Numbered from the stretch's first letter, positions 41,005 to 55,467 are shown. The stretch is 58,680 nucleotides of DNA from a virus (IMGVR_UViG_3300036911_000012:1-58680), one strand, 5' to 3'. The notes: generated by a model from the sequence alone, not told the origin. Program-made: numbers and translations.

Positions 41005-41511
41005 TCAATACGGCGTGCAACCGCCAATGAGCACGTCACTGCCCAGCCAAGTGAGCGCGACGCCGGTCGTACGAGTGTAGTTCGTGAACTGCACGGAGGT
41101 GGTCGAGGCCGCTGCGCTCTGGTCTTCGTAGGTGCCCGGAGTCGTGATATCATGCAGATGACACGCCCACCCATGCGCCGCCGCAGGCAGCGTCAGCACG
41201 AGCGTGCTACCCGAACATCCAGTAGCGCCGTTGGTAAACTTGAACGAGTACGGGTTGCCTGCGATAACCGGCGTGGTCGAGCACCCGCCCGACGCATACA
41301 CAGGCGGGGCAACCTGAGACGCGTCCTGCACCTGCGACGCGGCGGGGCCGGCGACGATGGGGTTGTACGGCACCGAGACGACGGGCTGGCCGTCCATAAC
41401 CAAACCCATATACGGGAAGGGGGTGGTAATCTGCGCCGTGGCGAGCCCCGCCCCCACAACGAGAACGGCGGCCATCGCAAAGAGCGCGTTCAACAAACCA
41501 AACTTCTTCAT
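41005..41511 (-). CDS. Exported protein (Sec signal peptide), 4 Cys
   Basis: MKKFGLLNALFAMAAVLVVGAGLATA|Q; GAGG RBS. Confidence 0.75.
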   Translation of the reverse strand: MKKFGLLNALFAMAAVLVVGAGLATAQITTPFPYMGLVMDGQPVVSVPYNPIVAGPAASQVQDASQVAPPVYASGGCSTTPVIAGNPYSFKFTNGATGCSGSTLVLTLPAAAHGWACHLHDITTPGTYEDQSAAASTTSVQFTNYTRTTGVALTWLGSDVLIGGCTPY

Positions 41512-41544
41512 AGCGACCTCGTTATGTCTGTCCCCGCAGGGGGG

Positions 41545-41772
41545 TTACTGGGAATTTTTGGCGGACTGGCCGGCCTCGGCCCTATTCGCGTGCCCCTTGC
41601 CGAACATCTTGGTCTTGCCGCCCGCCGCGAACTTCGCGTCGGAGCCGCCATTGGCCTCCTTGCCAGACTGGCCAGGGACAACCGGATGTGCAGTACCGCG
41701 TTCGAGCATCTTCGACGAGCCGCCCTGAGCGAAGAACTCCGGTCGGTCGCCTTTTTTGATAACTTTACCCAT
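41545..41772 (-). CDS. Small basic Gly-rich protein
   Basis: GGAG RBS; FAQGG and FAAGG repeats. Confidence 0.65.
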   Translation of the reverse strand: MGKVIKKGDRPEFFAQGGSSKMLERGTAHPVVPGQSGKEANGGSDAKFAAGGKTKMFGKGHANRAEAGQSAKNSQ

Positions 41773-41810
41773 CGAAGCTCTCCATCTAACGTCTGAATAT
41801 TTGGACGCGC

Positions 41811-41990
41811 CTACTTTTTACCCTTCGGCTTCTTGACGACGCCACCCTTCTTGAACGCCCCCATAGGACTGCCAGGAGGCCCCCCAGGAGCGCTACCGCC
41901 GCCGATAGGGCCGGGGGCGGGAGGCAACGGCTTTTTGCCAGGACCGCCCATCTTCTTCGCACCAGGGCCGAAGCCCGCACCTTTTGCCAT
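41811..41990 (-). CDS. Small basic Gly/Pro/Lys-rich protein (59 aa; not in the ORF track)
   Basis: My translation MAKGAGFGPGAKKMGG...MGAFKKGGVVKKPKGKK; GGAG RBS. Confidence 0.6.
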   Translation of the reverse strand: MAKGAGFGPGAKKMGGPGKKPLPPAPGPIGGGSAPGGPPGSPMGAFKKGGVVKKPKGKK

Positions 41991-42051
41991 ACTATTGCTC
42001 CATTTGCAAGCTGTTTTTGCCTAGGAGGGTGCTTGCGGTTACTCCTGGGAG

Positions 42052-51633: not shown

Positions 51634-51688
51634 ATGATTACTCCCAAGAGTCACCTGACGGAGCACCCCTCCCCCAGGATGCTCATGC

Positions 51689-54100
51689 TCAACCTCCGTA
51701 GGCCCATTGATACGTGCCTGAAACGTTCGTGCAACCCACGCGCTGCGAACTCGTGCCGGTCGAGGAAGGCACCCCAAGATACGTCGGCGAAGCCGGGGCG
51801 TTGCTTACGAACGCTTGCAACCCGACCAAATAAGCCAAGCACGAAGGCAGGGTTCCTCCAATTGTATAAGTTGGGTATATTGGAAGCGCAAAGCCTCCGC
51901 CGGCCTGATTGTAGTTGTTCTGCCCTGTTACCGTCGTTGTCGTGCCGGGCAGGAAATTGCTGTTATACGCTTCGTTGTTTACGAACACACTATTGCCAAA
52001 CGTCGCACTGGAAAACGTCTCATCTGGGCTGTTGGACCATGTGTTGTTTATAAACTGTAGATAGTTATTCGAACCGCTAAATGCAATTTGTTGATTGGCC
52101 GCATTCTCAAAGTCCGACGACTGCACAACGCCATTCGACGTTCCTACGAACGACAAGTTGTTGTAATTACCTTCTATATCAGCGCCAATTATCGACCACG
52201 CTTGCCCCCCGCCAATCGCGATAGCCGCACCTGCCAACTGATTCCCGCTATTAAAGATCCCATCTCCCCATATACGCGCCGCGTTACAACTGCTACCAGT
52301 TGAGCAATCAATCGCATTCCCGTTGGTGTTAACTATCAAATTGTTGGTGATATACGGTGCGTAGGATGATGAAATAGCCAGTCCAACGTTCCATCTACCA
52401 TCTATCGTGACGCGATCGACCACGAAATCGCTATTGTTCCCGACGCGGATTGCGATACCACTTGCCGCACCGTACTGATCCAGCCGCATGTTCATTACCG
52501 AGAAACTCGTATATGCGGCGTAGTTTTGTGCGGGGGATACATACTTAATGCCTGTTGTTTGCGTAGGAGCTTCCCATCGGAGTGCCGTGCAGCCGCCTTG
52601 ACCGGAAATATTATACAGCCCGTAGTCGCTCTCTAGTAGCGTAGCAGTCAACAGCGCCGTCCCGCACGGGAGTTGCAGTTTCGTTCCCGACGAAGCCGTG
52701 AGCGCGGCCTGAAGCGCCACAGTGTCATCGTGCGTCGCCAGTCCGCCGGAGAGGGTCTGACTTGATGCGTTCGCCAACACGAGAGTGTTCGTGCCGCCGC
52801 CAGAAACGATAGTCGAGAGCAAAAACCCATTCGTCGCCGTCGCGCTCGGCGCTAGCGCCAGCCAATCCGGGCGGTGTGAATCGTTTTCATTGTTGTCTTT
52901 CCATGTCGAGGTCGAAGTGACCCCGACGAATTGCATGAGGTTTAGCGCAGCGCCGCTGGAGACTGTCGTCAGGTTGAACGTGGCGCCGGTGCCCGCCCCT
53001 GACGAACTGGCTTGTCCGACTGTCGATGCCGCAGGTTCCCAATAGTACCCCGGAGCCGTTACCGTCACCGTCGCGACCGCAGAGCCCGAGAGCGTCGCTA
53101 CAGTCAGCACCGTGCCATCTGTGAGCGTTATGGTGTCCCCGACCGCGTACCCGGAGCCCCCCGCCGCCACGTTCGCCGCGCTCACGACGAAAATGCTGCG
53201 TGACACGACGTAACTCGACGGAATCGTCCCCGTCCCTGGGGGGTTCCACGAAATTGTATTATAGTTTGTCGGTGACAGCAGAGCGTTGCCCGTCGAGACG
53301 CTGACCGGCGTTATCGCAGGCCCGACTCCGCCGTAAGCATCGACGGCTTGCACGGTATAATAATACGTCGTGCTACCTGTCGCCCCCGTTGGCGTTATCG
53401 TCAGCCCTGTTGGCGGGTTGAGCGAGAATGTCGGACCGCAGCCATTGACGCGAACCCCCTCGCCGGTCACAAAATCAATCGCGGCGCTGAGCGATATGTT
53501 CGCCGAGCCCGAGGCGCACGTTGCCGACACGCTTTGACCCGACATAGAGACGTTGGTCAGTGCGACCGGGAGCGGCTGGTAGAGCGCTGCGCCACCCAAA
53601 GGCGTCGCCCATGTGCCGTCGCCGCGCCAAAACGTCGTCGATGCAGCCCCCGTCCCACTGTTGAGATTGGCGACCGGAAGATTGCCGGTGACCTGTGTCC
53701 CGAGGTTGACGGTCGCAGCCGTCGCCAGCGCGCCGAATGCAACCCCGCCGGTTTTTGTGCATGCCAGCGCCAATGATCCTGATGAGTTTGTGCAATCTCC
53801 GGTATGAGCGGGTTCCTGCGCGGCCTGTAGCGTGCCCGTCGCCTGCGTCGACAGGTTGACCGTGGTCTGCGTCCCTGCATATATCTGGGCATCCAGGGTC
53901 GTTAAATTCGTCAGGATGCTGTTGAACGTCGCGCCCGGCACGCGCCCGAGCCCGTTCGTCCAGGGCACAGCATTGATCTGGTTCTGCACCGACGTGGGGG
54001 TGACCTGCGCCTGTGCGCAGAGGCTACTCCCAAGAGTAAGCGCCAGGGCCGCCACAAGCGCCATAACACGCGCCAATATTTCAGTCACGAACGAGCCCAT
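51689..54100 (-). CDS. Tailspike/fibre-like beta-helix protein with Sec signal peptide
   Basis: ATG at 54100 after [57 protein letters not shown], Asn-rich beta-helix rungs. Confidence 0.8.
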
Positions 54101-54119
54101 CCGCCTACTCCGAGGCTTC

Positions 54120-54167
54120 ATCACAGTTTTTAGCATAGTTTTTATCACAGTTTTTATCACAGTTTTT
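54120..54167. repeat. 12-bp tandem repeat, four copies (ATCACAGTTTTT, one degenerate)
   Basis: Visible between the two fibre genes, overlapping the stop at 54157. Confidence 0.85.
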
Positions 54168-55467
54168 GGCACGCCAGAAGAACGACACTCGCCGCACGAG
54201 TTTCCGTCGTGCAGTTCGAGCACGCCACGCCAACAGCACTTGTAGGCTGTTGTTGATACGATGTTCCTGTAAGCCCCAGAGAAGCGCCACCTCCACTACC
54301 TGCCGTGGCGACAAAGCTGTACGACCCCGTAATACCAAGCGTGACAGGGCCAACCGCACTGCTCTCACCACCAGCCAGCACAGTTCCAGTTGGGTCGCGC
54401 CCAGCGCCACTGTCTATACCGCGCAGCACGCGCCCACGCGCGTCTGCGATTCCGCTCGCCCCGTTCGCGGCAGCCCACCCGTTCGGACACGTGGCGAGAT
54501 TAAACATGGCCACTTCCCCCGGAGGCGCAGTTGGTCCGGTCGACGTAAGCACAAACTCAACTCCGTCAAACGTAGCCGCCGCAATCTGCCCTGGAACCAG
54601 CTCACCCCCTGCCATAGGAGCTACCCCAGCGGGGGTTTGTCGGTACAAGTTTTCAATCGAGGCCGCCCCTACAGCTATGGTCGTAGGCCCTGTGTTGAGC
54701 GTGGCCGGGGTGAACACAATACTCGTGCCATATGTATTGGTAAACCCCGTGGGGACGGTAGCCCCCACAGTTATGGCGTTGGCCGCCCCGCCTATAGAAC
54801 TTCCAGTAAAAACGTATGACCCAAGCCCAGGTGGCGGGTACGCGAGCCCCAGCATGGACGCCGTAACGCTGGCGGGGCCTAAATTGCCCGCCGCTGCGCC
54901 ACTGGCAAGCATGGACGCCGTAACGCTGGCTGGGCCTAAATTGCCCGCCGCTGCGCCACTGGCAAGCATGGACGCCGTAACGCTGGCGTGGCCTAAATTG
55001 CCCGCCGCTGCGCCACTGGCAAGCATGGACGCCGTAACGCTGGCGGGGCCTAAATTGCCCGCCGCTGCGCCACTGGCCATTTTCGACGACGTAACTGCAC
55101 CGGGAGATATGACCGTCGCAAACGACCCCAAACTTGTTAGCACGTCCCCCGTAAGCACGGGAGCTTGCGCAGATTGAAGGGTGCCAAGGAGCGAGGTGGT
55201 CTGTACTTGTCCTGTGGCAAATATACTGGCCCCAGGAGCAGTTATGGTCGCGCTGTATACCTGCCCAAGCACTACGGTCAGGTTCGTCAGGATGCTGTTG
55301 AACGTCGCGCCCGGCACGCGCCCGAGCCCGTTCGTCCAGGGCACAGCATTGATCTGGTTCTGCACCGACGAGGGGGTGACCTGCGCCTGTGCGCAGAGGC
55401 TACTCCCAAGAGTAAGCGCCAGGGCCGCCACTCTGGCAACGTTGCGAAGTCGTAATAGTCGCAGCAT
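54157..55467 (-). CDS. Tail-fibre-like protein with tail-collar domain and Sec signal peptide
   Basis: [29 protein letters not shown]; collar motif [17 protein letters not shown]...[16 protein letters not shown]. Confidence 0.8.
54851..55077. repeat. 57-bp coding tandem repeat, four copies ([19 protein letters not shown])
   Basis: Units start at 54851, 54908, 54965 and 55022. Confidence 0.92.

Follow-up and report, generated by a model that had tools for sequence, protein, structure and literature searches.

The standard teaching on tailed phages is that their receptor-binding proteins are folded and mounted inside the cytoplasm. The window studied here, the whole 58,680-bp stretch of the virus record IMGVR_UViG_3300036911_000012, raises the question of whether this holds for every tailed phage. 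Seven of its genes, all on the minus strand and named here by their start positions (g41511, g44508, g44891, g45249, g50565, g54100 and g55467), begin with what looks like an export signal, and fibre-, spike- and knob-like proteins are among their products. Our analysis points to export and disulfide bonding of all seven, and leads us to a tentative view of g54100 and g55467 (class A fibres) as receptor-binding proteins that join the virion after export.

Signal-like N-termini and cysteine content of the seven proteins

The seven starts lie where a sequence-only reading had placed them, and the signal-peptide anatomy which that reading described was recovered. Up to the predicted cleavage site, the N-termini are MKKFGLLNALFAMAAVLVVGAGLATA before Q (g41511), MKRTLAVIASIIALALGAQFVLA before D (g44508), MSIRSKLLSTVAAVVLGASGALA before D (g44891), MWYIRQALVAVALLSAPAVATA before E (g45249) and RWGSALAALLLFAGAAHA before A (g50565, whose GTG start overlaps the holin stop). 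All seven proteins have an A-x-A-type site, with A or V at position -3 and A at position -1, and the uncharged stretch from the last charge of the n-region to the cleavage site is 16-23 residues long. The first residues of the predicted mature proteins include Q32 (g54100), Q29 (g55467) and D24 (g44508 and g44891). A Kyte-Doolittle hydropathy scan of the approximately 60 called window genes (threshold 2.0) picked out six of the seven; g55467 reached 1.91, but its h- and c-region is identical in kind to that of g54100. The sole other genes flagged were the holin, a 72-amino acid (aa) membrane protein and a doubtful open reading frame (ORF) at 10834-11217. A stricter version of the signal scan recovers five of the seven genes. 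Shine-Dalgarno (SD)-like motifs precede six of the seven starts; g44891 is without one, but overlaps g45249 by 17 nt.

A lipobox of the form [LVI][ASTVI][GAS]C at the end of the h-region was found in none of the seven N-termini (g54100 and g55467 carry SSLC with L at -1, which is no lipobox), and none of them contains an RRxF[LK]-like motif of a Tat signal. Lipoprotein, Tat and downstream-start readings were dropped after inspection of motifs and starts. Lipobox-type sequences (LSGC or LPGC) are present in relatives, namely in the fibres of loci L011-L013 and in the lysis genes of L002. In L011, L012 and L013, which are viral contigs of 36-64 kb, fibre-motif proteins of about 800 aa have a lipobox-type start (LLSGC or VLSGC; the match starts at 10001), and P0039 from the same protein family has an ordinary A-x-G site before Q in place of the lipobox.

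The signals are kept in homologues while their sequences diverge, as was found for g44508, g41511 and g45249. Four of the six g44508 homologues are N-terminally complete (P0122, P0123, P0124 and P0126), and all four have basic-then-hydrophobic starts that are unrelated in sequence; the copy of this gene in locus L009, a metagenome-assembled genome (MAG), also has a signal-like N-terminus. All 14 N-terminally complete g41511 homologues show a basic-then-hydrophobic start by eye. Signal-like N-termini were detected in 123 of the 150 listed g45249 relatives, and in 111 of the 130 that are 100-200 aa long. Among aligned proteins of the cassette to which g44891 and g44508 belong, [DE]G[IY] stands at +1 of the predicted site in 19/19 with no conservation elsewhere, and this restart of conservation at +1 argues for cleavage at that point.

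The mature proteins contain 4 (g41511), 18 (g44508), 2 (g44891), 2 (g45249), 4 (g50565), 10 (g54100) and 4 (g55467) cysteines, which agrees with the counts of 4, 2, 2 and 4 given earlier for the small proteins. Cysteine number is thus even in 7/7, compared with 10 even and 20 odd counts among the other cysteine-containing window genes (Fisher p = 0.0019). Even counts are reportedly, according to Dutton and colleagues in 2008, a signature of exported, disulfide-bonded proteins. Relatives with an even mature count are L002a, L002b, L003s, P0122, P0123, P0124, P0126 and P0033; P0010 has an odd one. Close pairing in the large proteins, likewise claimed beforehand, was verified and is exemplified by five pairs in g44508 (322/328, 462/470, 605/608, 684/689 and 709/716). 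In the g44508 family the pairs 322/328 and 509/529 are lost jointly, and new cysteines arise pairwise inside insertions. The same association was seen in proteins with the g54100 fibre motif, of which the best 120 of 3,202 were compared. Of these 120, 42 have a signal-like start and 78 do not: even and odd counts stand at 34:6 in the signal-bearing proteins vs 31:39 in the signal-less ones (p = 2.3e-5), and the signal-bearing proteins have twice the cysteine density of the signal-less ones.

Taken together, these results show or strongly indicate, at the level of sequence, that the seven proteins carry Sec signal peptides of the signal peptidase I type, predicted to be cut at A-x-A with export to the periplasm, and that the mature proteins would fold with disulfide bonds. 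The support for this is indirect (diverged signals that are kept, conservation from +1, cysteine pairing and cysteine parity); on these grounds we consider export together with oxidative folding of the seven proteins highly probable.

Class A fibres, the portal-side cassette and their surroundings

The seven proteins had been treated as one set. This view had to be given up, since they are of at least four kinds and g50565 belongs with the lysis cassette. The class A fibres are built like receptor-binding proteins, with an N-terminal module conserved between paralogues, swappable bodies and fibre- or spike-type domains. g55467 matches the tail collar fibre family phrog_1800 of PHROGs (E 8.5e-6), with the Pfam Collar match below cut-off; g54100 matches Pfam Beta_helix above cut-off (28.9 bits), and its fibre motif is also present in fibres of cultured phages. 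The direct repeat of 176 nt common to both genes spans the signal and about 40 mature residues, and beyond it the two proteins diverge. P0010, encoded on another contig, has the first 70 aa of g54100 and a different body, and P0033 combines the body of g54100, from about residue 110 on, with a signal and an N-module of another kind. Judged from these alignments, the swaps are the modular exchange typical of receptor-binding proteins, the predicted signal being carried along each time. A 12-nt unit (CACAGTTTTTAG), present approximately four times at 54120-54172, covers the end of g55467 (stop 54157-54159) and extends into the spacer before g54100.

Related arrangements occur elsewhere. In L002 and L003, the closest relatives, two fibres with a signal likewise precede the lysis genes, and L003 has two signal-bearing genes directly 3' of the portal. 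Among portal-family loci, the strict scan found at least three signal-like same-strand ORFs in the window, L002, L003 and L148 only. In L111 (7009-9056), an N-terminal fibre module (G.VTPGH…WTT.GV.QD.G) lies at residue 4 of a signal-less 167-aa protein and also directly after the signal of the adjoining 515-aa protein (57% identity, E 9e-9). The fibre-slot ORF of L148, whose start codon is uncertain, encodes a signal and then the fibre module that lies near residue 10 in signal-less fibres.

The relatives' canonical fibre starts MAISVKHKFVSPKADGGD and has no signal peptide and two cysteines. It is present in 25 of the 80 related loci obtained by an IMG/VR scan with a portal profile, and in 21 of the 34 that extend at least 8 kb downstream of the portal. 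The tblastn search with this fibre revealed no homologue in the window. The earlier statement that the genome lacks a conventional signal-less tailspike therefore stands for the canonical fibre, with the small proteins p160 and p172 as a caveat. In the Rhizobium phage RHph_TM3_14A the gene order is adaptor, small proteins, Gp77-like protein (94 aa), signal-less fibre (370 aa), lysis genes, nozzle and internal proteins. The order in the window is Gp77-like protein, p160 and nozzle, and the fibre-plus-lysis block is located elsewhere, with a strong promoter-like site and the two class A genes at its head; promoter-like matches in the region overall show no excess over shuffled expectation. The order of fibre followed by lysis genes is common to the window, RHph_TM3_14A and L149.

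The Gp77-like protein matches Pfam PF23148 (43.8 bits at a cut-off of 27, E 3.9e-11) and has homologues in L004, L006 and RHph_TM3_14A. In L149 (16878-20393) a fibre of 1171 aa, followed by lysis genes, carries the Gp77 collar domain as an N-terminal fusion, which confirms the link between collar and fibre in this phage group. P0002, in which a Gp77 domain is fused to a motif-bearing fibre, has only the repeat motif in common with g54100 and was discarded as a specific link.

Directly 3' of the portal, g45249, g44891 and g44508 form a three-gene cassette. The g45249 family comprises at least 251 clusters (50% identity) at E <= 1e-3, and the Atlas clusters nearest to g45249 are 91-100% viral. 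C73 and C112 are present in 34/34 chosen rows, which were picked for similar length and are biased towards signal-bearing members. Homologues of g45249 were found in 37 IMG/VR loci that have no other gene in common with the window. In 28 of these loci (23 distinct) the next gene encodes a signal with [DE]GI directly behind it, then in most cases a Gly-rich linker, and a body of 81-684 aa, which in L124 is a GDSL esterase. The exact 17-nt overlap of the window, counted to the first in-frame start, recurs in seven of these DGI loci, and by eye an MSI... start 17 nt inside the upstream gene is present in at least 10 further ones. The position of the cassette varies: in L122 it follows a portal of another family, in L100 and L115 it precedes the terminase, and in L096, L111 and L116 it is found amid tail and lysis genes. 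The g45249/'DGI' gene pair is a phage-specific, uncharacterised module predicted to be exported.

An AlphaFold2 model of g45249 (predicted local distance difference test score, pLDDT, 90.7) has a lone helix at residues 2-14, corresponding to the signal, and an eight-strand sandwich at 32-123. Foldseek with this model against the PDB found nothing at E <= 0.001, and PDB sequence searches with g45249, g44891 and a g41511 profile yielded chance-level rows only. The wide VIA fold search ranked the PM2 spike protein P1 first, followed by the Bacillus Ena1B pilus subunit, cupins and the turret protein of Sulfolobus turreted icosahedral virus. Since best Z values of 7 to 8 are usual with this tool where there is no clear match, and values below 8 may reflect a common arrangement, we claim a jelly-roll for g45249 and nothing further. 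A fold search of BFVD gave 70 matches at E <= 0.001, all of them uncharacterised tailed-phage proteins and many of 85-100 aa, i.e. the domain alone. Homology between g45249 and g44891, suggested by eye, found no support in profile comparison (hhalign probability 0.13%).

No family match was found for g44508 in Pfam or PHROGs; its homologue in L009 has a weak pectate-lyase-like Pfam match below cut-off. In this proteobacterial MAG an island at 6863-12679 encodes an amidase with a peptidoglycan-binding domain, the g44508 homologue (signal-bearing, with a frameshift), a protein of 139 aa and a GDSL protein, and has ordinary bacterial genes on both sides. Such an island may represent a 'fibre plus lysis' block, either as a remnant or in domesticated form.

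The four cysteines of g41511 are present in 17/17 rows. Its knob also ends the fibre of L002/L003 (tblastn to the fibre C-terminus, 39% identity, E 8e-6), and P0144 carries a knob of this type on a fibre stalk. A relationship of the knob to the g44508 family, again an idea by eye, was not borne out (hhalign probability 0.8%). For g50565, no family match in Pfam, PHROGs, NCBIfam or Atlas and no relatives were found; a role as spanin found no support, given that it has no lipobox and its N-terminus has a good cleavage site. Further products of the lysis cassette (49425-50756, minus strand) are the holin, a two-helix protein of 72 aa and a protein of 87 aa that has a hydrophobic helix at its C-terminus. 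Inspection of the ORFs at 49400-50800 revealed no o-spanin with a lipobox; L002 has two lipobox genes there. The features of the window that bear on these proteins are listed in Table 1.

Table 1. Signal-bearing genes and associated features of the window (positions counted from its first nucleotide; signals are predicted)
Feature	Coordinates	Strand	Description
g55467	54157..55467	-	436 aa; signal and shared anchor, five 57-nt repeats, tail-collar-like C-terminus
g54100	51689..54100	-	803 aa; g55467-type signal and anchor, fibre motif, beta-helix body (tailspike)
176-nt direct repeat	53880..54055 and 55256-55431		92% identity; first copy in g54100 (signal and anchor coding), second in g55467
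Sigma-70-like promoter match TTGACA-17-TATAGT	55497..55525	-	11/12 positions; adjoins g55467 upstream; consensus match only
g45249	44875..45249	-	124 aa; signal and eight-strand jelly-roll, two invariant Cys; first gene of the cassette
g44891	44508..44891	-	127 aa; signal, mature DGISSS, Gly-rich linker, small body; 17-nt overlap with g45249
g44508	42184..44508	-	774 aa; signal, mature DGYYPG, tailspike-like body, 18 Cys in covarying pairs
Terminator-like hairpin	42123..42144	-	directly 3' of g44508; nine-pair stem, then T-run; consensus match only
g41511	41005..41511	-	168 aa; signal, linker, knob domain of ~100 aa, four invariant Cys
g50565	49978..50565	-	195 aa; signal-bearing, directly after holin; four Cys; putative periplasmic protein of the lysis cassette
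Gp77-like fibre-to-tail collar protein	35421..36065	-	214 aa vs 94-100 aa in relatives; not signal-bearing; possible docking site
p172, post-nozzle protein	32574..33092	-	signal-less receptor-contact candidate, outside the exported set

The window is one entire IMG/VR virus record, which is linear and has a CheckV completeness of 96%. Its genes for the particle and for lysis comprise those for a portal of the SU10 type, a capsid protein of the HK97 type, a head-tail adaptor, the Gp77-like collar protein, a protein resembling a nozzle, large internal proteins free of Cys and a large terminase, together with a cassette of endolysin and holin. Encoded in the early half are a DNA polymerase of family A, a helicase of the SNF2 type and a DUF927 primase-helicase. 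No integrase was found among the window genes, which makes lysogenic-conversion 'morons' unlikely; neither tRNA genes nor a terminal repeat were found in the window. The nearest cultured phages are the Rhizobium phages RHph_TM3_14A, TM27A, TM27B and TM29 (capsid protein 64% identical), so that the host, as far as relatedness tells, is probably an alphaproteobacterium. The window is probably a nearly complete, virulent podophage of the SU10/GP4-like kind related to these phages.

Cultured phages yielded no match to the region with megablast and none to g44508, g45249, g41511 or the Gp77-like protein with tblastn, and the exported families were not found in 50,697 cultured phage records. Five of the seven signal-bearing proteins have no family in Pfam, PHROGs or NCBIfam, and IMG/VR scans turned up no close relative of P0033, of the Gp77-like protein or of p172.

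Three further observations concern other parts of the genome. No cysteine occurs in the 3,970 residues of three large proteins of internal or ejection type (2460, 1141 and 369 aa; 20169-32137, minus strand), compared with an average of 0.79 Cys per 100 aa in the window genes other than the seven, these three included; this may be linked to ejection, during which they pass the oxidising periplasm. At 1973-2249 a 12-nt unit is repeated in tandem about 23 times, and one plus-strand frame across this array would read (MALA)n. The protein p353 (39872-40933, minus strand) has two tandem domains of about 120 aa each; its homologue is a 242-aa protein in the equivalent head-module slot of L004/L005, with partial matches in L169, L170 and L121.

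Destination of the exported proteins

The best single reading of these data, which we prefer tentatively although it is somewhat less likely than not, is that the class A fibres are receptor-binding proteins of the virion and dock after export. g55467 and g54100 would replace the canonical signal-less fibre that relatives encode just ahead of the lysis genes. They would mature in the periplasm and meet finished, fibre-less particles only once the inner membrane has been opened by the holin, or at lysis; holin holes followed by a separate, later outer-membrane step are established, as described in the available parts of two accounts (bioRxiv 10.1101/2023.09.08.556860; PMC6139136). Docking would use the shared mature N-terminal module and the retained, enlarged Gp77-like collar, and undocked molecules could act as free binding or depolymerising proteins. 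The portal-side cassette would be a mobile exported module in which the small jelly-roll protein g45249 is a likely partner of the conserved DGI N-terminus, g41511 would be a stand-alone copy of a fibre knob, and g50565 a lysis accessory protein. Fibre-motif genes in IMG/VR contigs have a signal-like start in 19 of 80 cases, which suggests that a periplasmic route could be common in uncultured phages. The complete sequence of events, in which Sec-exported, processed and disulfide-bonded fibres snap onto fibre-less particles after the holin breach or lysis by a route that may be common, is a rather unlikely proposition when taken as a whole.

Several points weigh against a place of these fibres in the virion. 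Addition of virion proteins from the periplasm is not known to us for any tailed phage, and the open-access literature yielded no tailed phage with signal peptides on receptor-binding proteins or with periplasmic addition to the virion. The small fibre protein of phage A1002 provides a lead only: about 30 N-terminal residues are absent from the map and were maybe cleaved, according to the available part of the report (PMC13730344). All signal calls come from a heuristic scan of hydropathy and the -3/-1 positions and not from a trained predictor, and the n-region of g54100 has a net charge of 0, so that the basic n-region claimed in the sequence-only reading does not apply to this protein, the rest of the described anatomy being upheld. 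Receptor contact could be made by the signal-less tail-module proteins p160 and p172. Residues 1-55 of p172 match a 444-aa post-nozzle gene of L156 (E 0.002) and a post-nozzle gene of L171, which means that a small signal-less tail-tip protein exists in the window. Moreover, L155 and L162 hold a signal-bearing spike-like protein of 708 and 861 aa, respectively, in addition to the canonical fibre, encoded by an insertion between the capsid and adaptor genes (5902-8028 and 14785-17370, respectively; gaps on either side from about 250 nt in L155 to 740 nt in L162; no Pfam family), and in L096 and L111, two unrelated phages, fibre-like genes with and without a signal are neighbours. These cases show that signal-bearing fibre or spike proteins can be accessory. 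No phage structural gene was found within 8 kb of the g44508 homologue in L009, and the portal query had no match in this MAG. Finally, a small part of the genome may be missing, since the record is linear and 96% complete.

The same observations fit proteins that are exported but never join the virion and that act in the periplasm, on the surface of the infected cell or free after lysis, a serious possibility that stands only slightly behind the first reading in probability. Such proteins could cut, deacetylate or mask a surface polysaccharide receptor, with the g41511 knob as a receptor mask, and the effect could be superinfection exclusion, matrix clearance or progeny that do not stick to debris; the virion would then recognise its host via small signal-less tail proteins such as p172 or p160. 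This explanation poses no topological problem, and every feature it needs has a precedent. The mosaic adhesive trimers (MAT) of Bdellovibrio bacteriovorus are Sec-exported trimers that resemble phage fibres, as stated in the available part of the description (PMC10769870), and their matching architecture means that such a build can serve as a cell-surface adhesin, a further point against a place in the virion. The accessory spike-like proteins of L155 and L162, the L009 homologue away from phage structural genes, the movement of the cassette between unrelated phages in the manner of an accessory module, and DGI-tagged bodies that include both the L124 esterase and spike-like g44508 all agree with it. 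It leaves, however, a complete-looking podophage with a collar protein but without a recognisable fibre or spike, and the class A genes occupy the exact slot of the relatives' virion fibre. The families are also phage-specific (Atlas clusters 91-100% viral, and 70/70 BFVD fold matches are phage proteins), and expression is apparently from late operons, as judged by gene order only.

Two explanations deny cleavage or export altogether. The hydrophobic segment could be an uncleaved signal anchor of the signal-arrest-release (SAR) type that tethers the proteins to the inner membrane facing the periplasm until holin depolarisation frees them. The h-regions are rich in Ala, Gly and Ser over the 16-23 residues up to the A-x-A site, a composition also typical of SAR domains; with a good -3/-1 site in 7/7 proteins and conservation restarting at +1 in 19/19 rows, we regard this as improbable. 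Least probable of all is the absence of any export signal, with true starts downstream or a buried helix in cytoplasmic fibres whose cysteines are oxidised after release: GC-rich genomes do yield frames rich in Ala, Leu and Val, SD-like motifs stand at two downstream in-frame starts (g44508 codon 55 and g44891 codon 34) and L148 is a case with an uncertain start, yet the signal-like features stay in frame across dozens of diverged homologues, the annotated starts are SD-bearing or translationally coupled, and even cysteine parity tracks the presence of the signal.

What is new here is a set of fibre-, spike- and knob-like proteins with export signals and a disulfide signature in a phage whose ordinary fibre is lost. 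Should the class A fibres join the virion, its completion would depend on host Sec, Dsb and holin timing, so that assembly would have a new step and the phage a new kind of dependence on its host. Should they not, lytic phages would deliver a battery of proteins that bind or cut receptors into the dying cell's envelope. Tools for host-range prediction and for annotation of receptor-binding proteins may miss or misfile proteins that bear a signal peptide. The g45249/'DGI' pair (at least 251 clusters, 37 IMG/VR loci) is directly testable by expression.

Comparison with known systems

The fold of g45249 has counterparts in two eight-strand jelly-rolls, the receptor-binding domain of the PM2 spike protein P1 (2vve_B; Z 9.2, root-mean-square deviation 2.6 A over 83 residues) and the Bacillus Ena pilus subunit (7a02_A; Z 9.1, 4.6 A over 100 residues). 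Ena fibres are disulfide-linked according to the entry title; no function for g45249 follows from the likeness in fold.

Proteins encoded by phages and sent to the periplasm or outer membrane include T5 Llp, Cor of phi80 and N15, P1 Sim, T4 Sp and T4 RI, and in this respect they are like the window proteins. The gene for T5 Llp lies next to the receptor-binding gene. For T4 RI, a signal peptide that can be cleaved is reported in the available part of its description (PMC8385771). In contrast to the window proteins, none of them has the build of a fibre or tailspike, nor does any take the place of the phage fibre.

Virion proteins with Sec signal peptides are found in Inovirus, namely g8p and the disulfide-rich g3p, which are assembled outside the cytoplasm. 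Inovirus particles are extruded at the membrane, whereas the phage of the window has an HK97-type capsid, portal and terminase, and this combination means that it builds its particle in the cytoplasm.

The MAT fibres of Bdellovibrio combine a signal peptide, a beta-rich domain right behind it (conserved, about 130 aa), a phage-like trimeric fibre and a variable tip, as far as the available part of the published account describes them (PMC10769870), and by this description alone they are alike in architecture to the window fibres. They differ in that they are encoded by a bacterium and, in the same account, shown on its own surface, whereas the window genes lie in late operons of a virulent-looking phage.

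The closest comparison is with the GP4-type phages (Ralstonia phage GP4, RHph_TM3_14A and L004/L006), which have the same chassis of SU10-type portal, adaptor, Gp77-like collar and a capsid protein that is 64% identical in RHph. GP4 gp77 itself is a 93-aa adapter present in 15 copies, as given in the available part of the structural report (PMC11445570). These phages likewise have fibre genes directly before the lysis genes, with a modular N-terminal anchor and a swappable body. The difference lies in the fibre: the GP4-type relatives encode a signal-less fibre with two cysteines, whereas the window instead has only fibre- or spike-like proteins that bear a predicted signal and an even number of cysteines.

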